Shown piece after piece: positions 1 to 18,556 of a stretch of 20,000 bases of DNA. The stretch lies in contig NW_027191497.1 of assembly GCF_011745625.1 (NCBI RefSeq), forward strand, positions 114,961-134,960. The letters run 5' to 3'. The notes under the pieces are model-generated. The model did no database searches. It saw nothing but the letters and a program-made list of their open reading frames with translations, and was not told the DNA's origin. The stretch's first letter is position 1; each line of letters starts with the position of its first letter. Origin of the DNA: Cladosporium halotolerans (Eukaryota). Position numbers and translations under genes: made by a program.

Positions 1-578
1 AGCGTGCTGGCTGCGGCAGAGTTGGGAGTCTGTGAGCCAGTGCCGCGAGTGTGAGGTGTGCCGCCTTCGTCTGAGGAAGGATCTGGGGTGCCCGGTCGGC
101 TGTTTTGGGAGCTGAAGTTGGGTCGCAGGAGTGAGGTGAGGGACGGTGATGGTGGAAGAGGTGTTGGTGGTCGATTGTAGAAGGGCGGTGCGAATGCAGA
201 AGGTGCGAGGTATGTGTGACTGCGGGAGTGCTGGTGGTAGAACTTGTGTGCCGGAGGAAGAGAGGTGATGTGTCCGCTTTCTTCCTCTGATGCCTCCTCG
301 TCTGAGGCCGAGTCGCCTGGAGAGAAAGTTCGGGCCTCATGCGCGTCAAGGGCAAAGTCTTCGATCGATGCAGGCTCGGATGGAGAGGTTATGTCGTCTG
401 GCGAGAGGAGGCCTTGGTCTGGCCGGGTATTGGTAGGTGTAGCATTTGCGGTGCTTGAGTCGCTGTTCTGGGCAGAGGTGATCGAGTGTAGGGTGGGAAG
501 GTTCGGGGTGGATTTCGAGTATATGCCCGCCGGCTTGGAAGGCGGCTTGTGCGAGTCGCCTCGACTTTGGGGTGGCAT
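1..578 (-). CDS. GPI19: PIG-P/Gpi19 subunit of GPI-GlcNAc transferase, 5' part (runs off the window start)
   Basis: Not in the ORF track. Frame is open from ATG 578-576 (context cacaATGc) to the window edge: MPPQSRGDSHKPPSKPAG...SAFAPPFYNRPPTPLPPSPSLTSLLRPNFSSQNSRPGTPD. I recognise the FAPPFYxRPPTPLPPSPSLTSLLRP block as the N-terminal extension of Pezizomycotina PIG-P proteins. The PIG-P domain itself lies outside the window. Confidence 0.75.
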   Translation of the reverse strand, partial: MPPQSRGDSHKPPSKPAGIYSKSTPNLPTLHSITSAQNSDSSTANATPTNTRPDQGLLSPDDITSPSEPASIEDFALDAHEARTFSPGDSASDEEASEEESGHITSLPPAHKFYHQHSRSHTYLAPSAFAPPFYNRPPTPLPPSPSLTSLLRPNFSSQNSRPGTPDPSSDEGGTPHTRGTGSQTPNSAAAST

Positions 579-922
579 TGTGTGTAGTGCCAATGGTGTC
601 CAGTGTGGATAGGACTGGCCGTGGCCCAAGTTGGACGGGTGTGATGGGGTCGCGCGTGGGGGAGGCTCGCGTTGCGCCAGATTTCCCCACGCCTCATCTT
701 CACCCCAGACATCAGTGACTTGAAGCCAACCAACCAAATCGTACGTCTTGTCATCAGTTGCAGAATACCATTTCGATCGGTCCAGTATCTCGATCTTCCC
801 TGGATCCACAAATAGTAGAGAATACAAATCGTTCAATTCCCTGTGAACACTGGACGCAAAAGTTTGCAGAGGACGACGGCTCTTCTTCCTATACAAAAGA
901 AGCATCCGGCCTGTCACGAAAC
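579..922. promoter_or_regulatory. Compact divergent promoter region shared by GPI19 and NTA1
   Basis: 344 bp between the two head-to-head start codons; inferred from gene arrangement only. Confidence 0.5.
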
Positions 923-1966
923 ATGAAGATCGCGACTCTGCAACTCGACTCCAAAATTCGGAATGTCACGACAAACATCGCCACTGCAGACTCCATCCTA
1001 GCATCTTCTCCGCCCCCTCCGGACCTTGACCTTCTGGTACTGCCGGAACTGGCTTTCACAGGCTACAACTATCCTTCGTACGATTCGATCCAACCTTACC
1101 TTGAGCCCACAACTGCAGGCGCCACGACAAAATGGGCCATCGCTACTGCCACACGCCTGAGGTGTCACGTAATCGTCGGATATCCTGAAATATCAACAGA
1201 CATCGACGAGGATCGCCAACCTACGACGGATGGAGAGCCCGTACATAAACGATACAACTCCACAGTAACTGTCAGCCCAACTGGCGAAATCCTAGCCAAC
1301 TATCGCAAATCTTTCCTTTACTACACCGATGAGAGTTGGGCAGCGGAAGGCCCTGCAGGCTTCTACTGCGACTCTCTCGGCTCATTGGGCAAGGTGGGCC
1401 TTGGTATCTGCATGGATATTAATCCTTACCAGTTTTCCGCGCCTTGGGACAAATACGAGTTCGCCACACATGTCTTGTCTGGTGGCGCGAAGTTGATCGT
1501 CATGTCCATGGCGTGGCTGACGACACTACCGAAGGAGGAGATCAAGGTGCTCCCTGGCCAGCCTGCTTTGGAAACCGTAGGCTACTGGCTGCAACGGTTT
1601 GAGCCTGCGATCGAAGCGAGCAAATCTGGAGAGGACATCACAGTGGTGTTCTCGAACAGGATTGGGATCGAGTGGAACGAAGTCAAAGAACTTACCACGA
1701 AGACTGGACAAGTTATTCCCCTAGGCGATGAAGTCTGTTATGCTGGGAGCAGTTGCGCCATGAGATTCAGTAATGGAGAGGTCAGCATTTTGGATATGCT
1801 TGGAAAGGGAGAGGAGGGATTGTTACTTGTTGACACCGATATCGTAAGTCTTGTTGAAGACAGGAGTGCCTCAGCCAATTGAGCTAACGACCAGCAGCCT
1901 GCCAAGTACGCTTTGCGACTCAGAGAACGCATAACAACCAACGAAGAAGAAGAAGATACAAGTTAA
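923..1966 (+). CDS. NTA1: Protein N-terminal Asn/Gln amidase (nitrilase/CN-hydrolase family); exons 923-1843 and 1895-1966
   Basis: Starts MKIATLQ at ATG 923. Nitrilase triad motifs: LVLPELAFTGYNY (Glu), YRKSFLYYTDESWA (Lys), GICMDINPY (Cys). Phase-0 intron GTAAGT(1844)...GCTAAC...CAG(1894). Last exon QPAKYALRLRERITTNEEEEDTS*, with AATAAA overlapping the stop. Confidence 0.88.
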
Positions 1967-2554: not shown

Positions 2555-2599
2555 TCTTAACGCAAGCCACACCCGGTCCTCCATTCGAGCACTGGCAAC

Positions 2600-5500
2600 A
2601 TGAGCGCTATGTCGAGCGTGTCAACCTTCCCAGGGTTTGTTCCTGATTGGTCCAACCTTGATGTCCTCCATCGGAACGAGGTCCCGGCTAGGGCTATCTT
2701 TTACAACTATGCTTCTGAGGCCGCCGCCTTGTCATTTAGCAAATCTGAAGCTGAATATGAAAGCCTGAACGGAGATTGGAAGTTCAACTACGCCGACTCC
2801 CCATTCGATGCTCCAGCATGGGATGAAGCTGAGTCGTGGGATACCATTGAGGTCCCAGGTCACTGGCAGAGACAAGGATACGGACGCCCTCACTACACCA
2901 ACATCCACTATCCTTTCCCGGTTTCACCTCCGAATGTGTCCTATCAAAATCCTACCGGCTCCTACTGGCGTCAATTCGAAGTTCCGGAGAAGTGGGATGG
3001 TCAGCACATCCGTGTTCGCTTCGAAGGCGTCGACAGCGCATTCCACGTTTACGTCAACGGAGACGAGGTCGGATACAGTCAAGGAGCTCGCAACCCTGCG
3101 GAGTTTGATATCACCGAATACCTTTCACCTGGCCAAAGCAACAACCTTTCTGCCCGGGTTTATCAATGGTCTGATGGGTCTTATCTCGAAGATCAGGATC
3201 AATGGTGGCTGTCCGGTATCTTCCGCGACGTGTACTTGATGCCTTTCTCTGAATCCTCAATCCAAGACTACCAAATCGTGCCGCATGTTGCTGATGACTT
3301 CAAGTCTGGGTTCTTCAGCTTCAACATTACAACTGCCGGTGGCAACGGAACTGTCAGTGCAAAACTTCTCGCTCCGAACGGGGCGGAGCTTGAGACCTAT
3401 GAAGGATCAGCGTCTGGAAACATTACCATGCAGGTCTCTGGGGGTGACTTCCACCTTTGGTCTGCCGAAACACCGACGCTCTACACGGTGGTTTTGAACT
3501 TAGGTGAACAGTACATCAGCCAAAAAGTCGGTTTCCACCGTATCGAACTCAGCGGTCCCAACATGCTGGTCAACGGTGAGCCTATCATCATCTACGGTGT
3601 GAACAGGCACGAGCACAACTCCGAGTCTGGCAGAACAGTCCCTTACGAGGCTATGCGTGCCGACATGATCCGCATGAAGCAGAGCAACATCAACGCCATC
3701 CGCGCTGCTCATCAACCCCACCACCCTGACTTCTTCGACCTTGCGGATGAGTTGGGCTTCTATGTCATTGCAGAGGCAGACTTGGAATGCCATGGCTTCA
3801 ACGACATCAACGACACCGTCTATGGTGCTTCTCAGTGGACCTCAAACAACACCGATTGGACCGGCGCCTACCTTGATCGTGCCGAACAACTTGTTGACAG
3901 ACTGCGAAACCACGTCTCCATCATCATCTGGTCTCTCGGCAACGAGTGCTACTATGGTCAAAACCATGTCGAAATGTACAACTGGATTCACGAGACCGAC
4001 CCCACCCGCCTTGTGCACTATGAGCCTGACCAGAATGCTACATCGACCGATATGTACAGCCACATGTACCCATCACTCGAGGACATGGACGAGCAGATTA
4101 GTAATTTCACAGACAAATTCTACATCCTCTGCGAGTATGCCCACGCCATGGGCAACGGTCCCGGAGGTCTCGTTGAGTACGTCAACAAGTTCAGGACTGA
4201 GCCCCTCATCCAAGGTGGACTCGTGTGGGAATGGAACAACCATGGTCTGAGGCACGAGCAAAATGGCACTGAGTTCTACGCTTATGGCGGTGACTTCGGC
4301 GACTACCCGAACGATGCCGACTTCATCATGGACGGTCTCACCCTGTCCGACCACACGCCCATGCCATCTCTCTATGAGTACGCTAAGATCATTCAGCCTG
4401 TTGAGGTAAAGCTTTCCAACGATTCTACTCAGATGATGATCAGGAACTGGTACGACTTCCTCGATTTGTCTCATCTGGATGCTTCCTGGCATATCGTTCG
4501 TGACGGCGGTGCCAACGCTTCTACTTCTACTCCACTCAACGTCTCTGTCGCCGCGGGAGAAACCGTATCTGTTCCAGTTCCAATTAATCGCAACACTCTC
4601 GATTCCGAGGCTTGGCTGACGGTCGAGTTTGCTCTCAAGGAGGACCATGCCTGGGCTCCGGCAGGCCATGTTGTTGCCTTCGATCAGCTCTACCTTGAAG
4701 GCCCCATGGCTGGCCAGTCAAACAGCACTCTGCAGACACGCTCCTCTTTCGCGCTATCTAACCGCCAAACCGAAGTCAACATGACTCAAACAGGCAACCG
4801 AATCATGGTCCACAGCGGCGACTCGACCTTCGGCTTCGACCTCGTCCGCGGCAACGTCACATGGACTTCCAACGGCGTTGACCTCTTCAACCGTGGCCCG
4901 GAGCTGTATTTCTACCGTGCCATGACGCAAAACGACAACGGCCAGAGCGGCGACGCCGAGTTCTGGAACGACGCCTGGGTCCACTCCATGCGCACTCAAG
5001 TCCGCGACGTCTTCTGGGAAGACACCGGCGATGCGCTCGAGGTCCGCTACAACGTCCGTGTCGCCCCTCAGGTCCTCGAATGGGGCGCGGAAGCAGACAT
5101 CATCTACACGATCCCGCATGATGAAGGCGCGCTCTCCATCCACGCCCAAGGCGACTTCGTCGGCAACAACACGCCCGAGGTCCTCCCTCGCATCGGTCTC
5201 CTGACCCATCTCAACCAAGACTTCGACGATGTCGCCTGGTTCGGCCGCGGCCCAGGGGAGAATTACCCCGACTCGAAGCAATCCCAGCTTTTCGGCGAGT
5301 ACTCGTCGTCCGTCGCCGAACTCTTCACCTATTACGACTACCCGCAAGAGAACGGCAACCGCGGCGAGCTACGCTGGCTACAGATCGGCAACCCGAACGC
5401 AGGCCTTACGCTCGACGCGCGCATGGACGGCGAGCCGTTCAGTTTCACGGCCAAGCGCGTGTCGGACTACGACCTCAACGACGCGCAGCACCCGCACGAC

Positions 5501-5644
5501 CTGCAGCAGCTGAACATGACGATCCTGAACCTGGACATGAAGAACAACGGTCTGGGCAGCGCGACGGTGGGCCCGAGGCCTTTCGAGCAGTACAAGTGCT
5601 ATTCTGGGCCGTTTGACTTTACCTTTCACTTGAAGTTGGTGTAG
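2600..5644 (+). CDS. Glycoside hydrolase family 2 beta-galactosidase (LacZ/LAC4/EbgA-like), 1014 aa, intronless
   Basis: Motifs FEGVDSAF, EDQDQWWLSGIFRDV, GVNRHEH, acid/base WSLGNE, nucleophile LCEYAHAMGN, YGGDFGDYPND, and C-terminal WFGRGPGENYPD and YPQENGNR. Confidence 0.96.
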   Translation: MSAMSSVSTFPGFVPDWSNLDVLHRNEVPARAIFYNYASEAAALSFSKSEAEYESLNGDWKFNYADSPFDAPAWDEAESWDTIEVPGHWQRQGYGRPHYTNIHYPFPVSPPNVSYQNPTGSYWRQFEVPEKWDGQHIRVRFEGVDSAFHVYVNGDEVGYSQGARNPAEFDITEYLSPGQSNNLSARVYQWSDGSYLEDQDQWWLSGIFRDVYLMPFSESSIQDYQIVPHVADDFKSGFFSFNITTAGGNGTVSAKLLAPNGAELETYEGSASGNITMQVSGGDFHLWSAETPTLYTVVLNLGEQYISQKVGFHRIELSGPNMLVNGEPIIIYGVNRHEHNSESGRTVPYEAMRADMIRMKQSNINAIRAAHQPHHPDFFDLADELGFYVIAEADLECHGFNDINDTVYGASQWTSNNTDWTGAYLDRAEQLVDRLRNHVSIIIWSLGNECYYGQNHVEMYNWIHETDPTRLVHYEPDQNATSTDMYSHMYPSLEDMDEQISNFTDKFYILCEYAHAMGNGPGGLVEYVNKFRTEPLIQGGLVWEWNNHGLRHEQNGTEFYAYGGDFGDYPNDADFIMDGLTLSDHTPMPSLYEYAKIIQPVEVKLSNDSTQMMIRNWYDFLDLSHLDASWHIVRDGGANASTSTPLNVSVAAGETVSVPVPINRNTLDSEAWLTVEFALKEDHAWAPAGHVVAFDQLYLEGPMAGQSNSTLQTRSSFALSNRQTEVNMTQTGNRIMVHSGDSTFGFDLVRGNVTWTSNGVDLFNRGPELYFYRAMTQNDNGQSGDAEFWNDAWVHSMRTQVRDVFWEDTGDALEVRYNVRVAPQVLEWGAEADIIYTIPHDEGALSIHAQGDFVGNNTPEVLPRIGLLTHLNQDFDDVAWFGRGPGENYPDSKQSQLFGEYSSSVAELFTYYDYPQENGNRGELRWLQIGNPNAGLTLDARMDGEPFSFTAKRVSDYDLNDAQHPHDLQQLNMTILNLDMKNNGLGSATVGPRPFEQYKCYSGPFDFTFHLKLV

Positions 5645-10073: not shown

Positions 10074-10622
10074 CTACTGGGTGTTGGCAGACAGGATGTC
10101 GGAGTCACCGGCGTCGAGGATGGCCATGGTGGAGCAACGGAAGAGCTTACCGCAGGCGGTACCAAGCTCGATCTGCATTACGGATTCAAGTCAGCCATTT
10201 GGTCCCTCCAAAGTCTCTATTGCAGAGAGCTTCTTCTCAGGGCTCCAGAGTATCAATGTCCTCCAGAGCCACAATCAAAGCTCCTTCGCAAGACATGCGA
10301 TTTTTTTCTCCTCAATCGGGTATGGAACGTACGTTGTTGCCGGTGAAGTGGTGGACGGCGGTCTTGCCGAGCATGGAGTAGTACTCGAGCTCAGACTTGC
10401 GGAGAGGCGGGGTGTTGCCAGCAATGATGATGAGCTTGGCCTTGCCGGAGCGGAGGGCCTTGAGGGTGGACTTGTAACCCAGAGTGACCTTGCCGGACTG
10501 TGGAAATTCGGTCAGTTTTGCGCTTCGTCTTTTGGCTGCTCGCAAAGGGAGCGCACCTTGATAGTCAGCGCCAGCTTGGCGTTGATGCTGTCAGCGGTCT
10601 TCGCGCCCTTCTTCGGTGCCAT
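10074..10622 (-). CDS. RPL30: 60S ribosomal protein L30 (eL30), 109 aa; exons 10622-10557, 10497-10333, 10172-10074
   Basis: [65 protein letters not shown]...[30 protein letters not shown]. Introns of 59 and 160 nt with CTGAC branch points. Confidence 0.97.
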
Positions 10623-11462: not shown

Positions 11463-13478
11463 ATGTCATCCGCGACCGCCAAAAAGCCGCCCGTCCCTGG
11501 CACCACCACCGCCCGGAGGCAATCCCAGAACCCGTCCACGTCGTCGCCTTCGCGAAGCCCTTCCAGGATAGGCGCGCAGAACTCGGCTGGATCAGCGACT
11601 GCTTCGAGCGTCAACAGGACTCGATCGACCCGGACTGGAACTCCTGTGTCAGCCAGGGCGGCCGCCAGGAAGCCCGCTCCTTCCAACGAGGCCGATAACG
11701 AAGCGAAAGCGGAGTTGCAGGTGAAAATGGAAGAACTCCAGGAGCAGCTTCGCCAGGCCGAGGAGAACTCGGCCGAAGTCCAGAAGCAAGCGGCGGTGCT
11801 GCAGGTCAAGCTGGACGAGGCGCTTAAGGAGACCTCAATGCTGGAGGAGCATGTTCACGAACACACTGAGCGCATCAATGATCTGGAGAACGAGAAGAAA
11901 GAGAATCTTCGCGCCCGCAGAGAGATGGAGCAGATCTACGAGAGCGAGCGCGCGGCCTTCATGAAAGAGCGGGAGGAGACCCAGACCAAGGAGGAGGAAA
12001 TGCAGGCTTCGATACAGCGCATGAAAGAGACGCTCGCGCAGAAAGAAATGCGCGCCGGCCTCGACGATGGAAAGAAGCCAGACCTATCGCGTAACTCTAG
12101 CTTCCGCAATAGCATGTCTTCCTCGCCTAACCCCGACGCCGGCCAATTCGCGCCACCTTCAGTTCAACGCAGCGATTCAAGAGGTAGCGACTCTAGGAAC
12201 AGCTCCCGACTCGTGATGCAGAAAGACAAGGTCATCGAAGGTCTGCGACTGGAACTTGCCGAAGCGCAGATCAAGCTCGTGGAGGTGGAGAACATGGGTG
12301 GCGGAAGGCTGCAAAAGATTGAAAACGAAATGTACGAGACCAAGGTGCAGAATGCTCGCTTGATGGAGGAGAATGAGAGTTTCCAGCTCCTGCTAAGCGA
12401 GAAGACACTTAACGGGGACTTCTCTAACAGTGAATTCCTTAGGCCGCACTCGAACGTTGATTCAAGGCCGTCATCGTCGCGTCAAGCCACGGGAAACACT
12501 TTGGCGGACGAACTTGAGGGTGAAGAGGAGGGCGAAGTTGGCGAGGATACTCGCAAGTTGCAGGCCGAGCTCGCTGCTGCGAAAGACCAGAACAAGGCCC
12601 TGACGCTGTACATCAACAACATCATCTCTCGCCTCTTGCAGCATGACCAATTTGAGCAGATCCTCGACAAGACCCCAGATCTTATGTCAGGCCAGCCTGC
12701 ATCCAACAACAAGCCGAACAAGCCTGCCAACACGGAGAAGGAACTGCCGCCTCCGCCACCGGAGAAAGATGAGCAGCCGACTGGTCTGTTGCAGCGAGCC
12801 CGGAGTGTCATGGGCGGCAAGAAGCCCAGACCTCAGTCGCAAATCATCACGTCAGAGCAGGCTCCGAGCATGAACGAGAACCCCAGCACTGCACCCAGTG
12901 TCCCTCTTTACGAGCGACGCAGCGTCAGCGGCGGTCACCGTCGCGCAAACTCCGAGTGGGCCGCCGCGAGCGTCGTGAATAACATGTACCGCGGACCGTC
13001 TCCCGGCAGCATGGCACCAGGCAGCCCTGGTCTGGGTTCACCCACTCAGCGTCCAGTCAGCTATTTCGCAGCACCACAACCGCTCGGTGCGCGCATGCCG
13101 TCGAACACGCGTAACCCATCCGGCAACAACGTCCCGACGATTGACGAGAACAACGTGACCTCCAGCAACGCGGAGAACGCGAACCCAACCTCCGCGCCCA
13201 ACCCCAACCGCATGAGCATACCTTCAAACCCCTTGATCGACGCACACGACGAAACAGGAGATGCCAGCAACCCATCGTCTCCGCCGCGCAGCGTCACCTC
13301 CAGCGGCGACCGCGAATCGCGCGCAGGCGGCAGCGGAGCCGTCATGATGGGCAGCAAAATGCGGCCACTGCGCCTCGTCAAAGAAGCCGAAACGCAAGAC
13401 GACGCAGCCAAGAAGCAGGCGAACCGTGGCAGCTGGTTCGGGTGGATGAACAAGGGTGCTTCGGCGAATCCCCAGTAG
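11463..13478 (+). CDS. Conserved fungal coiled-coil protein, 671 aa, with a possible Rab11-FIP-type Rab-binding domain
   Basis: Long intronless ORF with good start context. S/T/R-rich N-terminus, long E/K/Q heptad region, blocks QNARLMEENESFQLLLSEKTLNGDF and DQNKALTLYINNIISRLL, then a disordered P/S tail ending GSKMRPLRLV...RGSWFGW. Confidence 0.88.
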   Translation: MSSATAKKPPVPGTTTARRQSQNPSTSSPSRSPSRIGAQNSAGSATASSVNRTRSTRTGTPVSARAAARKPAPSNEADNEAKAELQVKMEELQEQLRQAEENSAEVQKQAAVLQVKLDEALKETSMLEEHVHEHTERINDLENEKKENLRARREMEQIYESERAAFMKEREETQTKEEEMQASIQRMKETLAQKEMRAGLDDGKKPDLSRNSSFRNSMSSSPNPDAGQFAPPSVQRSDSRGSDSRNSSRLVMQKDKVIEGLRLELAEAQIKLVEVENMGGGRLQKIENEMYETKVQNARLMEENESFQLLLSEKTLNGDFSNSEFLRPHSNVDSRPSSSRQATGNTLADELEGEEEGEVGEDTRKLQAELAAAKDQNKALTLYINNIISRLLQHDQFEQILDKTPDLMSGQPASNNKPNKPANTEKELPPPPPEKDEQPTGLLQRARSVMGGKKPRPQSQIITSEQAPSMNENPSTAPSVPLYERRSVSGGHRRANSEWAAASVVNNMYRGPSPGSMAPGSPGLGSPTQRPVSYFAAPQPLGARMPSNTRNPSGNNVPTIDENNVTSSNAENANPTSAPNPNRMSIPSNPLIDAHDETGDASNPSSPPRSVTSSGDRESRAGGSGAVMMGSKMRPLRLVKEAETQDDAAKKQANRGSWFGWMNKGASANPQ

Positions 13479-14047: not shown

Positions 14048-14969
14048 ATGTAAGCGCACCATCATCTCCCACCATCTCCAAACCACAACCTAACATGCCC
14101 TCCCAAGGATCGACCCATCAACCCGCCTCCGCCGCGCCATCCAACTGAACGACCCCGTCCTCGTCGCCCGCCTAATCCGCCTGCATCCCACCCTCCTCTC
14201 CAATCCCGACTTCGCCAACAAATCCAACACCTCGCTGCACCTCGCGGCCTCAACCGGCAGCGTGCCCATCGTGCAACTCCTCATCGCCGCCGGGCACGAG
14301 CACGCCGAAATCTCCCGCAACGCCCTGCAAGAAACACCGCTGATGCTGGCCGCGCGCAACGGCCACGTGCCCGCCGCGCGCGCGCTGGTCGAGGCCTTCC
14401 CGCGCTGCGTGCCGATGGTCGACAACCGAGGCCTCGACGCGCTGGCCCTCTGCGCGCAGAGCGCGTCCGGCGAGAGCACGGCGCTCATGCCCATACTCCT
14501 CCAGCAGCCGGGCTCCTCCGCAGCGTCAGCGCACAGCCGCGACGCAGACGGCAACACGCCGCTCCACCACGCTTCCGCCGCAGGCAACCTGGCCGCGCTG
14601 CGGATCCTGCTGGCGGCGGGCGCGAACCCGCTGGCAAAGAACGACTACGATTGGACGCCGCTGGCGTACAGCCAGACGGTGGCGGCGGAGGTGTACTTCA
14701 AGAACCTTGTGGCGGAGTTCGAGCGGCGGAAAGTGGAAGGGCAGCGGGTTGGGGAGGAGAGGGAGAGGCAGCGGGCGGCGGGGGTGCGGTTGGTAGAAGA
14801 GCCTGGGTCGCGGCCGGGGACGGCACAGCCGACGCACGAGGAGATTCCGGAGCTGGGGGTTGGGCAGTGGAGTCCCGGGAACAGAGGGGGGATTGTGGTG
14901 AGGGATCGGAGACCGGAGAGGGGGTTGGGGATCGAGGGGATGAGGATGAGGGCGGGGAGTGGAGATTGA
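14048..14969 (+). CDS. AVO2: Ankyrin-repeat protein, Avo2-like (TORC2-associated), 287 aa; coding exons 14048-14049 and 14108-14969
   Basis: Splicing GTAAGC(14050)...CCTAAC...AAG(14107) gives MIDPSTRLRRAIQLNDPVLVARLIRLHPTLLSNPDF, resembling the yeast Avo2 N-terminus (PSVRLREAI). Ankyrin motifs NTSLHLAA, ETPLMLAA, GNTPLHHAS, WTPLAYS. Confidence 0.8.
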
Positions 14970-15165: not shown

Positions 15166-18100
15166 TCAGAACTTGCCCTTAGGCATCTTCTTATCCACGC
15201 CGAAAGCTTCAACCTCCTTCGACTTGTAGTAGTGCGGTGCGACCTCGCTCAGCCACTCCGGCTGAAGCGGCATGACGCTGCGCATAAACTCCTTGCTGGT
15301 GAGGACGAGTTCGTAGAAAATGACCCACTTAGGCTTGCTCTCCAGCAGCACGCCACTGGGGTGCAGGTGGACCGTCATGTTATTCTTCACAGTGCGATAT
15401 GTGTCACCCGACCTCTGCAATCTGGCTGCGTTCGGGAAGAAGCCGGCCGTGAGAGCCTTCTGGATGGGCTGGATGTTGGAAGCACCGCAGGACGAGGGAG
15501 CGACTTCAACGCGGTCGCACAGCTTGACGAGCTGATCGCGGACATCGCGCGCTCTGGTGAGAGAGCGCTGCTGCAGAAAGTTCTCCTTCGCCCAGACGTA
15601 CGAGAAGTCGCTGTCGACCCATTGGTTGAAGATGTTGAGATACGTCAGGTGATCACCGCCCTCCTTGATCGTGAAACGGTTGCGAGCAGCGTCGGCTTGC
15701 ATCTTCTTGTCTTTGGGGCGGTAAAACAGAGCGCTTGCCTCGCCCAGCATCGCCACAATACTCAAAACCTCGTCAACGCAGCCTTCCTTGTCGGCCGCGA
15801 GGACGGCCTTAGCGAGCATGGGGTCGGTAGGGAACTCGGCCATCTGGCGACCCATCTTTGTGAGCTCACCTTTGTCGTTGAGGGCTCCGAGAGCATAGAG
15901 CTGCTCCAACGAACGAATGAGCATGTCCGGTGACGGCGGGTCCATGAAGTCAAAAGAGATAAGATCGTTGATGCCTAGCGATTTGAGCAGCAGGACCACG
16001 CTGTTGAGGTTGGTACGTTGGATTTCAGGAGTGGTGCTCTCCGGCAGATCGTTGTAGTACGCCCATTTCGTGTACAGTCTGAAGGCTTTGCCGGGTGCAG
16101 TGCGACCGGCACGGCCGGCACGCTGGTTTGCAGATGCTCGAGAAATCGGTACTGCGACCAAGCTCTCCATGTTCGTGGCGGGCGTGTACCTGTTTTCCTT
16201 GACGTAGCCTGGGTCGATGACATAGACGATGTTGTCGATGGTGAGCGAGGTTTCGGCGATGTTGGTTGCCAGCACAACCTTCCTGCATTTGGGCGGCGTC
16301 GGATCGAAAATCTTCTGCTGCAAGTCTGTGGGCAGGTTGGCGTAGATTGGACAAATAATCAGTTCTGGAGCAGCACTACCAAGCTTTTTCGCCGTCTCCT
16401 GTAAAGATAGCTCGGCCTGTTCGATCTCGTCTTGACCAGTCAAGAACACCAGAATGTCACCAGGCATTGGCTGAGAAAGGTGAATCTGGAAGACAGTCGT
16501 GATAGCAGCCGAGAGGTAGTTGGCCTCCGGCTGCATAGAATAGTTCATTTCGACGTCGAAGGTGCGACCAGGAATGTTGAGAATGGGTGCGCCGTCGAAG
16601 AATTCCGAAAACTTCTGCGCATCGAGCGTCGCAGAGGAGATCAACAGCTTCAGGTCTGGGCGTCCTCTTGCGATATCCTTGACGAGACCGAACAGAATAT
16701 CCGTGTGCAGTGTACGCTCGTGGGCCTCGTCGATCATCAAAGCGCTGTATCCGCCGAGATCCGGCTCGGTCAAGAACTCTCTCAGCAGCATACCGTCGGT
16801 CATGTATTTGAGCTTGGTCTTCTCGGTAGTAGCATCCTCGAATCGGATGGCGTAACCGACTTCGTTGCCGACCTTGACACCCACCTCTTCGGCGACGCGA
16901 GTAGCAACACTCATGGCTGCCACACGGCGAGGCTGGGTGCAGCCGACCTTCTGCCCGTTGTTGCAATAACCCTCTTCATACAGGTATTGAGGAAGCTGTG
17001 TTGTCTTGCCAGATCCAGTCTCTCCCACGATGATGAGGACTTGATATTCCTTTACAGCGTCCAAAAAGGTCTGCCTGTACTGGTACACCGGTAATGACTT
17101 CCGCTTCTCCTCGATAGTTTTCGCCTTCCTCTCTGCCGCAAGGAGTTGCTGTGCCATCATGCGCTCCTCCTGAGATTGCATGTTGTTCATTCCTCCCTGC
17201 AGAACAGCATCGGTCATCCACTTGAGCTGCTGCTCCTCGTCGAAGACGTAGTCGTACTCGTGCTGGTTCTGGCGCTCTGCCACCACGATTTGGGCTTTCG
17301 TCTTCGCAAGCTGCTCTCGTTCCCACTCCTCATGCTCCGTGACATATTTCTCGCGACCACGCTCGTCTCGGTCAACGTAGCGGCTGTACAGGGCATTCTC
17401 CTTCTTCTTGACATCCATCTTGCCCTTTTCGGTGATGTAGTCATCCGGCATTGCATAGCCATCCACCCAGTCGTCGATGTTCTCACGCTCCTCTGCAAGC
17501 CGCAGGGCCTCTCTGTTGCGCGCAAACTCGTCCTTCTCTCCTTGTGTCAGAGCAGGGTTACTTCTCTCCTCCTGCTCTTCGTCCATGACTTGCTTCCGCA
17601 GCAATATGAGCTCCTGCGCCGAGCGCTTCTGGAGGTAATCCTGACGCGATCTTAACCTGAGCGCCTTCATATCCTCCGCCGACAGTTTGCCGGCTTGTCT
17701 CCTCCGCTCCTCGTCCTCTTGCTCCCGCTTTGCCCGTTCGCCGCCGAGCTTCTTCGTCGAGTCGGCATCCTTGTTGCGGAGGCGATTCTCAAATTCCTTC
17801 TTCTCTCTGCGATCCCGCGTCTCCTCGTCCTCCTCGGGCTCCGGAGTGCGTTCCTTGCGCGGCGGCGAAGCAGATCGGTCCTCGAACCTCGCACGCTTCG
17901 GAGGCGGCGAAGCAAACTCCTCTTCCTCCTCTTCAACCTCCGCATCGCCCCAGCGATCATCGAATTCCCCATCCCTGCGACGCCGCGCCTTCTTGCTCGA
18001 CCGCTCCTTGCTCCTCGACCTCCGCGTCTCGCGCTCAGTCTTATGCCTCGACTTCCTCTCCCTCTCCTTGTCCCCCTTCTTCTCCTCCACAGCGACCTCC

Positions 18101-18393
18101 TCATCCTCCTCCGGCATGTCGACCAGCGCATACTTCTTCCTTGCCTGCTTCGGCTTCGGCGCCTGCGTCGCACCAGCAGACCCCTCGCTCCCCTTTCCGA
18201 CCCTGCTGAACAACCCTTCACTGAACCGCCTCAGATCCGCATCGCCAGACTCCAGCATGCCGGCGAGCTTGTCGAACAGCGCGCCGGGCGATTTGGCGCT
18301 CTTCGCGGTTCCGAGGACGAAGTCGATCATCATGTCCTCGCTGCCGCCGACCAGCTTGATCAGGTTGTCCGAGACGTAGGTGCGGACATCCAT
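15166..18393 (-). CDS. PRP2: Pre-mRNA splicing DEAH-box RNA helicase Prp2/DHX16 (S. pombe Cdc28-like), 1075 aa, intronless
   Basis: Motifs GETGSGKTTQLPQYL, TQPRRVAAMSVA, DEAHER, SAT, QRAGRAGR. The charged N-terminus with RSRQDYLQKR, GYAMPDDY and EHEEWEREQ blocks, and LFGLVKDIAR, point to the DHX16 subfamily rather than Prp16/22/43. Confidence 0.93.
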   Translation of the reverse strand: MDVRTYVSDNLIKLVGGSEDMMIDFVLGTAKSAKSPGALFDKLAGMLESGDADLRRFSEGLFSRVGKGSEGSAGATQAPKPKQARKKYALVDMPEEDEEVAVEEKKGDKERERKSRHKTERETRRSRSKERSSKKARRRRDGEFDDRWGDAEVEEEEEEFASPPPKRARFEDRSASPPRKERTPEPEEDEETRDRREKKEFENRLRNKDADSTKKLGGERAKREQEDEERRRQAGKLSAEDMKALRLRSRQDYLQKRSAQELILLRKQVMDEEQEERSNPALTQGEKDEFARNREALRLAEERENIDDWVDGYAMPDDYITEKGKMDVKKKENALYSRYVDRDERGREKYVTEHEEWEREQLAKTKAQIVVAERQNQHEYDYVFDEEQQLKWMTDAVLQGGMNNMQSQEERMMAQQLLAAERKAKTIEEKRKSLPVYQYRQTFLDAVKEYQVLIIVGETGSGKTTQLPQYLYEEGYCNNGQKVGCTQPRRVAAMSVATRVAEEVGVKVGNEVGYAIRFEDATTEKTKLKYMTDGMLLREFLTEPDLGGYSALMIDEAHERTLHTDILFGLVKDIARGRPDLKLLISSATLDAQKFSEFFDGAPILNIPGRTFDVEMNYSMQPEANYLSAAITTVFQIHLSQPMPGDILVFLTGQDEIEQAELSLQETAKKLGSAAPELIICPIYANLPTDLQQKIFDPTPPKCRKVVLATNIAETSLTIDNIVYVIDPGYVKENRYTPATNMESLVAVPISRASANQRAGRAGRTAPGKAFRLYTKWAYYNDLPESTTPEIQRTNLNSVVLLLKSLGINDLISFDFMDPPSPDMLIRSLEQLYALGALNDKGELTKMGRQMAEFPTDPMLAKAVLAADKEGCVDEVLSIVAMLGEASALFYRPKDKKMQADAARNRFTIKEGGDHLTYLNIFNQWVDSDFSYVWAKENFLQQRSLTRARDVRDQLVKLCDRVEVAPSSCGASNIQPIQKALTAGFFPNAARLQRSGDTYRTVKNNMTVHLHPSGVLLESKPKWVIFYELVLTSKEFMRSVMPLQPEWLSEVAPHYYKSKEVEAFGVDKKMPKGKF

Positions 18394-18556
18394 GGTGGGC
18401 GGCGGGGGTCGCGCGAGCGCGAAGAGAAGGAATGGGAGAAGTTTTAGGTTGTGTCGTGGTTTAGTGTGGTTTGGCGCAAGCTCGTGTGAGGCGAAGCTGT
18501 TGCGGTGCTAGCGCGGAGCTCAGAGGTGGAAGGTGCGACTTGCGCTGCAGCTACGC

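Follow-up and report, generated by a model that had tools for sequence, protein, structure and literature searches.

A fungus-wide coiled-coil protein family with a conserved helix suggestive of the Rab11-binding domain of FIP proteins

Introduction

Do fungi possess a Rab11-binding helix of the kind carried by the Rab11-FIP proteins? The question is raised by a coiled-coil protein encoded in a 20,000-nucleotide stretch of DNA from Cladosporium halotolerans (assembly GCF_011745625.1, contig NW_027191497.1, positions 114,961 to 134,960 of the forward strand). This whole stretch is called the window below, and coordinates are given in its numbering. A sequence-only reading of the window took the protein for a fungal counterpart of FIP3, FIP4 and Nuf, including a FIP-type Rab-binding domain (RBD). 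In two papers, Rab11-FIPs are treated as mammalian or metazoan effectors (PMC9808001, PMC9213775). If a fungal FIP counterpart were real, the FIP Rab-binding domain would have to date back to the last ancestor that animals share with fungi.

The question also touches an existing problem of fungal cell biology. For Aspergillus nidulans, the adaptors that link the motors kinesin-1 and dynein to RAB11 secretory vesicles are described as uncharacterised in one study (PMC9213775), and dynein engagement of RAB11 vesicles without the Hook complex is reported in another (PMC5385943).

The window protein belongs to an ancient, uncharacterised family of scaffold proteins, which are made up of coiled coils and disordered sequence and are spread through the fungi. 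It is treated here as the bearer of a FIP-RBD-like element and is not filed as a FIP. The link of this element to the Rab11-binding domain of FIPs (Pfam family PF09457, RBD-FIP) is suggestive on profile evidence. The reading that we favour, and hold tentatively, is that the protein forms a dimeric coiled coil that binds GTP-bound Rab11 (RabE) on secretory vesicles, the RBD-like helix being a remote relative of the FIP RBD.

Family membership and distribution

The protein is encoded by an uninterrupted open reading frame (ORF) of 671 amino acids, as given by the ORF list and its translation (Table 1), and is 100% identical to a database protein of the same length (P0002). It has 1550 database homologues at an expect value (E) of 0.001 or below, from 7999 candidates scored. 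In each homology search the best 120 to 150 matches were inspected. All of the best 120 of the 1550 are fungal, and their source names are 'hypothetical' or 'M protein, serotype 2.1'; the nearest named relative listed among them is a hypothetical protein of Cladosporium fusiforme, with 80% identity. When residues 245-412 are used as the query, 349 cluster representatives are found at E<=0.001, 165 of them at E<=1e-10, and the composition of this set rests on the best 150 of the 349 matches. The same residues align with P0262, a member from Actinomortierella, at E 1.1e-12. The Actinomortierella region used as a query in its turn yields 328 candidates, of which 37 reach E<=0.1, and these come exclusively from fungi.

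Members are named in the Dothideomycetes, Leotiomycetes (Blumeria), Lecanoromycetes, Pezizomycetes and Sordariomycetes (Triangularia, Neurospora, Colletotrichum and Fusarium), as well as in the Mortierellomycota (Actinomortierella, Mortierella and Linnemannia), Mucoromycota (Blakeslea), Zoopagomycota (Dispira and Basidiobolus) and Blastocladiomycota (Paraphysoderma). No member from Saccharomycotina, Taphrinomycotina or outside the fungi is among the matches listed. The orthologue in Neurospora crassa is NCU08962. At 90% identity it clusters with P0388, and P0388 in turn has 59% identity with P0144, a member from the Sordariales. NCU08962 and its orthologues belong to the same family as the window protein and share its length and its order of motifs. 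A literature search found no publication with the tag NCU08962; it also found no published fungal FIP, part of that search being poorly targeted.

The source names 'M protein' and 'NUDE domain' are rejected for this family. The M-protein match reflects a generic coiled-coil repeat, LxxENxxLxDQNKxLT. The automatic name 'M protein, serotype 2.1' was likely assigned because the LxxExxxLKDQNKALT stretch preceding the conserved tyrosine resembles the repeats of streptococcal M proteins.

Conserved elements and predicted structure

Conservation was counted in an alignment of 134 sequences (A4), with denominators that differ from column to column, and the full-length AlphaFold2 model was made with the 134-sequence alignment. 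The three strings quoted in the sequence-only reading, KIENEMYETKVQNARLMEENESFQLLLSEKTLNG, TLADEL and DQNKALTLYINNIISRLLQHDQFEQILDK, are present as described within residues 285-403, which are encoded by positions 12315-12671 of the forward strand. They lie in three conserved blocks (Table 1). Block 1 has the family pattern NARLMEdNESFQLLLsEKTLNGdF, with N297 conserved in 125/132 sequences, L300 in 130/132, S306 in 124/133, Q308 in 128/133, L310 in 130/134 and G318 in 129/133. The second is the [ST]-L-A-[DE]-E-L motif, in which L347 (129/133), A348 (127/134), E350 (127/134) and L351 (130/134) are nearly invariant. The third is the FIP-RBD-like element of residues 360-403, with the core motif N377-K-A-L-x-L-Y383-I-N-x-I-I-x-R-L-L and the family pattern LKDQNKALTLYINkIIxRLLQH. 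Its tyrosine, Y383, is found in 133 of the 134 sequences, followed by A379 (129/134), I387 (127/134), N377 and R390 (123/134 each) and I384 (117/134, with valine in a further 15).

The element is predicted as two helices, both with a pLDDT (predicted local distance difference test) of about 90, separated by a one-residue break. A separate model of residues 283-406 returns the same helices with pLDDT above 90 and a predicted template modelling score (pTM) of 0.34, which indicates no confident packing between helices. The FIP RBD consists of a long helix followed by a C-terminal hook, and the succession of long helix, break and short helix is counted in favour of the preferred reading as the same layout. 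The sequence-only reading also described the motif as internal and followed by a disordered tail of roughly 270 residues. This description holds: 268 residues follow residue 403, with pLDDT mostly below 50 across 404-640.

Conserved hydrophobic positions of the element recur with a spacing of three or four residues (366, 370, 373, 377, 380, 384, 387, 391 and 394). They suggest a heptad register in which N377, I384 and L391 would occupy position 'a' and L380, I387 and H394 position 'd'. Parallel coiled coils of two strands classically carry an asparagine at 'a', and the conserved N377 would thus fit a parallel dimer. In the same register L382, Y383, I388, R390 and L392 would face outward. They are conserved as strongly as the core, which is the pattern expected of a partner-binding face.

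A further explanation of the element is that it merely dimerises, through a coiled coil, a protein with a structural or condensate-forming role, with no specific ligand and with conservation that results from packing. The composition of the protein agrees with such a role, since it is mostly coiled coil and presumably disordered sequence (pLDDT below 50 in 326/671 residues), and the M-protein names and match reflect generic coiled-coil repeats. However, the outward residues Y383, A379 and R390 are as conserved as the core, conservation in the element is far above that of the long N-terminal helix, and a helix break and a short conserved helix follow; plain zippers tolerate far more substitution. 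We therefore regard a mere zipper as very improbable.

Similarity to the FIP Rab-binding domain

The Pfam gathering score for RBD-FIP is 23.3 bits, and the similarity was assessed against it at the level of the family as well as of the window protein. Over 103 isolated homologous segments RBD-FIP is the commonest Pfam family, matched by 23/103 at E<=1 with a best E of 2.4e-5; the runners-up are DUF4200 (20) and Ada3 (13). Twelve of the 103 segments, nine from early-diverging fungi and three divergent ones, were rescanned singly, and RBD-FIP was matched by ten of them and was the top match in eight. Two isolated segments from Actinomortierella exceed the gathering score with 23.5 and 24.5 bits; the same members scanned as whole proteins reach 17.5-19.6 bits and stay under it. 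Nine of 30 distant homologues scanned whole match RBD-FIP at E<=1: P0262 (8.2e-4, its top match), P0272 (0.0038), P0259 (0.037), P0306 (0.042), P0276 (0.068), P0264 (0.11), P0301 (0.14), P0256 (0.17) and P0279 (0.77). In all nine the match covers the homologous motif, and its end lies between positions 29 and 34 of the 41-position profile. As a control, helices 75-201 and 244-316 have no RBD-FIP match at E<=10, and helix 75-201 yields generic coiled-coil Pfam noise only. These scores point to a family-level likeness to RBD-FIP that is borderline yet probably above chance, and that appears strongest in early-diverging fungi.

A profile of 34 sequences (A3, residues 283-406) was compared with 177,635 PDB sequences, and the Rab11-FIP3 chain 4uj3_C ranks fifth of the 23 listed. 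The FIP3 sequence, SESLAAEISSV..SRDELMEAIQKQEEINFRLQDYIDRIIVAIMETN, is paired by HMMER with the family sequence SLAdEL...NkALtlYInkIierlLqh, and the pairings are colinear: SESLAAEI with SLAdEL, EINFRLQDYIDRIIVAIMETN with dqNkALtlYInkIierlLqhk, and YIDRII with YINNII. The core of the second pairing sets NfrLqdYIDRIIvaIMet of FIP3 against NkALtlYInkIierlLqh of the family. The Tyr-Ile core motif is thus seen in 4uj3_C and conserved in the fungal family. FIPs have Y-I-D as their core motif, and in the fungal family the D is replaced mostly by N (N 84, D 22 and E 16 of 134 at position 385). The alignment also bears out two of the three FIP3 blocks given in the sequence-only reading, and their order. 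The likeness of block 1 to FIP3 is a proposal of that reading, the FIP3 alignment covering the other two blocks. The proposed resemblance to the FIP3 C-terminus accordingly stands in part: two colinear blocks are shared and are family-wide, but the statistics are borderline and the window protein lies under the Pfam cut-off.

A considerable body of results weighs against the favoured reading. The whole window protein has no RBD-FIP match in Pfam at E<=10, its sole match being HAUS6_N at E 0.25, and RBD-FIP is likewise absent from the scan of a 153-residue piece. An isolated segment of 53-58 residues matches PF09457 at E 0.034-0.038 with 14.3-14.4 bits, about 9 bits under the cut-off, and RBD-FIP comes third there, with tied scores, after the unrelated DUF7237 and Ada3. 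Taken alone, the likeness of the window protein to RBD-FIP is at chance level. With 124-residue segments (n=34), bZIP_1 is matched by ten and ZapB by seven, and RBD-FIP by just four. The matches across homologues are moreover non-independent, since they share one motif. The PDB match to 4uj3_C is non-significant (E 0.42, 14.3 bits), and the same profile gives equally weak matches to ribosomal protein uS7, Abraxas, Saglin and ATG16. A profile of the RBD-like region only (A6, 103 sequences) finds no FIP in PDB at E<=10; its best match is a streptococcal M protein serotype 6 repeat (E 0.0035), through LxxExxxLxDQNKxLT. Neither a metazoan FIP nor a protein to which PF09457 had been assigned beforehand is among the homology matches listed. 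The element is internal and ends at residue 403 of 671. C2 and EF-hand domains have no Pfam match in the window protein or the 30 distant homologues, and are absent from the 25 families listed for 24 close homologues. Finally, BapH, UDS1 and MyoE were obtained as RAB11 effectors of A. nidulans by GTP-dependent pull-down, and no evident member of the family is among these named effectors (PMC9213775).

The caution of the sequence-only reading that coiled-coil bias could inflate the resemblance was well placed, with bZIP_1, ZapB, Ada3, DUF4200 and streptococcal M protein as rival weak matches. Further searches gave nothing to add: the whole window protein found nothing relevant in PDB, a 24-sequence Dothideomycete profile found nothing relevant in PDB or Pfam, Foldseek returned no match at E<=10 for the 124-residue AlphaFold2 model in PDB, and the segments of the window protein (P0001) and P0262 had no usable match in ESM Atlas.

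For complex prediction, the fragment 340-415 was supplied twice, along with GTP, Mg and residues 1-178 of a Pezizomycotina-type Rab11 (L079:223-855). The scores were 0.09 and 0.16, the mark being 0.34; obtained without controls and with alignments unused, they speak neither for nor against binding. The Rab11 sequences came from metagenome contigs, which were searched for a motif specific to Rab11 by means of a degenerate pattern, and 26 uninterrupted Rab11 ORFs were recovered, L079:223-855 among them. The Pezizomycotina-type sequence (MANDEYDFLFK...) is full-length on several short contigs, for example L079:223-855, L041:300-929 on the reverse strand and L028:77-712. Such uninterrupted ORFs presumably come from transcript assemblies; genomic copies of Rab11 have the same large central exon, with introns at both ends.

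Candidate partners and proposed mechanism

The main rival to this reading is that the element may be a conserved docking helix for another partner, and its likeness to FIPs may have arisen by convergence or chance, both being short amphipathic coiled coils. Candidate partners would be another small GTPase, such as Sec4/Rab8, Ypt6/Rab6 or an Arf, or else a motor or a factor involved in polarity or septation. All similarity scores of the window protein are sub-threshold, the PDB searches are non-significant or negative, unrelated coiled-coil families score alike, and the C-terminal position and the C2 or EF-hand domain, which are defining features of FIPs, are both missing. Conservation outside the core argues for a specific partner and leaves its identity undecided. 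The FIP-RBD profile also matches the C-terminus of ELKS/ERC, a Rab6-interacting protein, so that even true homology would not fix which Rab is bound. On the other side, RBD-FIP is the commonest Pfam family over the 103 segments, two homologues from early-diverging fungi attain its gathering score, its register is constant, and the SLAxEL block is also colinear with FIP3, all of which goes beyond generic heptad expectation. We consider a different partner nearly as probable as the favoured reading, and likewise short of an even chance.

Under the favoured reading of a Rab11-binding dimer, the following mechanism may be proposed. Rab11 on post-Golgi secretory vesicles would recruit the protein as a dimer, in which two copies of helix 360-393 would pair as a parallel coiled coil with Asn377 at heptad position 'a'. 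L382, Y383, I388, R390 and L392, together with the short helix after residue 394, would clasp the switch regions of GTP-bound Rab11 (RabE/Ypt31). The remaining elements, namely block 1, the SLADEL helix and the LPPPPP, HxRxxS, RPLRLV and SW-GW motifs, would tie the vesicle to further partners and to regulatory input. Direct results of the analysis are the family with its pattern of conservation, the predicted succession of helix, break and helix, and the borderline profile similarity to RBD-FIP; from them we infer dimerisation, Rab11 as the partner, localisation on vesicles and the roles of the other motifs.

A stronger claim is that the protein is a true counterpart of the class II FIPs (FIP3/FIP4/Nuf), acting both as a Rab11 effector and as a motor adaptor for secretory vesicles. 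The colinear likeness to the last ~45 residues of FIP3, including SLAAEI upstream of the RBD, and the long coiled-coil architecture speak for it, and the dynein adaptor of fungal RAB11 vesicles is an open question in two studies (PMC5385943, PMC9213775). The architecture nevertheless differs in several respects. In the window protein and 54 homologues scanned whole, Pfam detects neither an EF-hand or Hook domain nor any other domain known to bind the dynein light intermediate chain; the predicted helices, 127, 73 and 34 residues long, have disordered linkers between them and do not form a single long coiled coil; and the RBD-like element is internal, with no FIP3, FIP4 or Nuf among the homology matches listed. 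The counterpart proposed in the sequence-only reading is unlikely on these grounds, to which the missing C2 domain and the score 9 bits under the cut-off are added. Equally doubtful is its fullest form, a fungal Rab11-FIP counterpart already present in the fungal ancestor, which as a dimeric RAB11/RabE-GTP effector would link vesicles to microtubule motors or the Spitzenkörper and be switched by NDR/COT1 at the HxRxxS site.

Conserved, apparently single-copy and equipped with a FIP-like helix, the fungal protein is a concrete and cheaply testable candidate for the RAB11-vesicle adaptor problem, with orthologues throughout the Pezizomycotina, including NCU08962 in N. crassa, and in early-diverging fungi. 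If Rab11 binding were true, the FIP-type domain would predate animals and hyphal tip growth would gain a new effector. The favoured reading would then place a FIP-type helix outside animals, in an internal position and a different architecture, since early fungal evolution. If Rab11 is not bound, an extremely conserved docking helix and several conserved linear motifs would still be worth study.

Other conserved motifs and neighbouring genes

The disordered tail contains four short conserved motifs (Table 1). The proline motif K-x-L-P-P-P-P-P is possibly a docking site for SH3, WW or EVH1 domains. The consensus of the NDR/LATS kinases (Cbk1/COT1), which regulate polarised fungal growth, is H-x-R-x-x-S/T. 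The HRRANS site fits it, and by this match the protein may be a substrate of COT1/NDR. A sequence of the form H.R..[ST] is found somewhere in 91/134 members of the family, and homologues from the Mortierellomycota carry H-[KQ]-R-R-Q-T as the counterpart of the site. The C-terminal N-R-x-S-W-[MF]-G-W motif is possibly an anchor to membranes or to a partner. Early-diverging fungi have this basic-aromatic C-terminus too, but with changes; examples are RRWSLFG (Linnemannia) and AWKRMSGATW (Basidiobolus).

An exon-like ORF on the opposite strand (10315-10545, reverse strand), some 900 bases upstream of the gene, matches ribosomal protein L7Ae/L30e (PF01248, E 1.2e-13). The Hypoxylon texense homologue P0389 has the source name '60S ribosomal protein L30', which suggests that an L30 gene is a neighbour there too and was merged or mislabelled in annotation. 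The hydrolase, beta-galactosidase, ankyrin and helicase genes of the window (Table 1) are without evident link to the coiled-coil protein.

Table 1. Features of the window protein and neighbouring genes, with residue numbers and window coordinates
Feature	Residues	Window position	Strand	Basis and remarks
Protein gene (P0001)	671 aa	11463..13478	+	Single exon; coiled-coil and disordered; orthologue of N. crassa NCU08962
Disordered N-terminus	1-74		+	AlphaFold2
Long N-terminal helix (presumed coiled coil)	75-201	11685..12065	+	AlphaFold2; pLDDT mostly 89-98 in blocks 81-130 and 161-190
Second helix	244-316	12192..12410	+	AlphaFold2; linkers on both sides
Conserved block 1, ETKVQNARLMEENESFQLLLSEKTLNGDF	292-320	12336..12422	+	Among the most conserved stretches of the family
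[ST]-L-A-[DE]-E-L motif (TLADEL)	346-351	12498..12515	+	Short helix 347-354 (AlphaFold2)
FIP-RBD-like element	360-403	12540..12671	+	Helix 360-393, one-residue break at 394, helix 395-403 (AlphaFold2)
Proline motif K-x-L-P-P-P-P-P	426-433	12738..12761	+	K426 101/114, L428 98/112, P429 123/130, P432 118/131
H-R-R-x-x-S site (HRRANS)	492-497	12936..12953	+	H492 78/119, R494 121/127, S497 105/126
R-P-L-R-L-V motif	634-639	13362..13379	+	R634 106/122, P635 111/121, L636 106/121, L638 105/119, V639 104/119
Short helix directly after RPLRLV	641-654			AlphaFold2
C-terminal basic-aromatic motif N-R-x-S-W-[MF]-G-W	654-661	13422..13445	+	R655 121/123, S657 114/121, W658 96/121, G660 106/119, W661 99/107
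Carbon-nitrogen hydrolase		719-1879	+	Domain match of open frame
GH2 beta-galactosidase, complete		2561-5641	+	Domain match; five GH2/LacZ domains
Ankyrin-repeat protein		14094-14966	+	Domain match
DEAH-box helicase		15169-18507	-	Domain match; HA2 and OB domains

Comparison with known systems

The closest comparison is with the FIP RBD itself (PF09457; FIP3, 4uj3_C). Both comprise a helix of about 40 residues with an N-x2-L-x2-Y-I-[DN]-x-I-I core, preceded by S-L-A-x-E-[LI], and the fungal element is predicted as a helix, a break and a short helix, aligned in one Pfam register across the family. According to PMC9808001, FIPs have in common a coiled-coil RBD which lies at the C-terminus and enters into 2:2 complexes. 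The fungal element differs in position, being internal and followed by a further 268 residues. Homologues from early-diverging fungi have it internally as well; in P0262, which is 606 residues long, it lies at about residues 239-260.

FIP3-like dynein activating adaptors have a module that binds the light intermediate chain (an EF-hand pair, a Hook domain or a CC1 box), followed by a long uninterrupted coiled coil. The window protein has no EF-hand or Hook match in Pfam, and its predicted helices are interrupted; for CC1-box and Spindly motifs it was compared with the consensus by eye. The class II FIPs (FIP3/arfophilin, FIP4 and Drosophila Nuf) differ from it as follows: the window protein has no detected EF-hands, its coiled coil is interrupted by disordered linkers, and its long disordered tail carries the fungal-specific LPPPPP, HRRxxS, RPLRLV and SW-GW motifs. 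No sequence search joined the two groups among the matches listed. They are alike in that both have a long coiled coil with a Rab-binding or RBD-like helix after S-L-A-x-E, and both are candidate links between Rab11 carriers and motors.

Within the fungi, membership of the UDS1 family is rejected, as the window protein has no match at E<=10 to PF15456, the Uds1 domain that UDS1 carries, and belongs to a separate family. In its mode of action, UDS1 (AN5595)/JANUS-1 of A. nidulans is akin to the role proposed here, being described as a dimeric, rod-like coiled coil that binds RAB11-GTP directly (PMC9213775).

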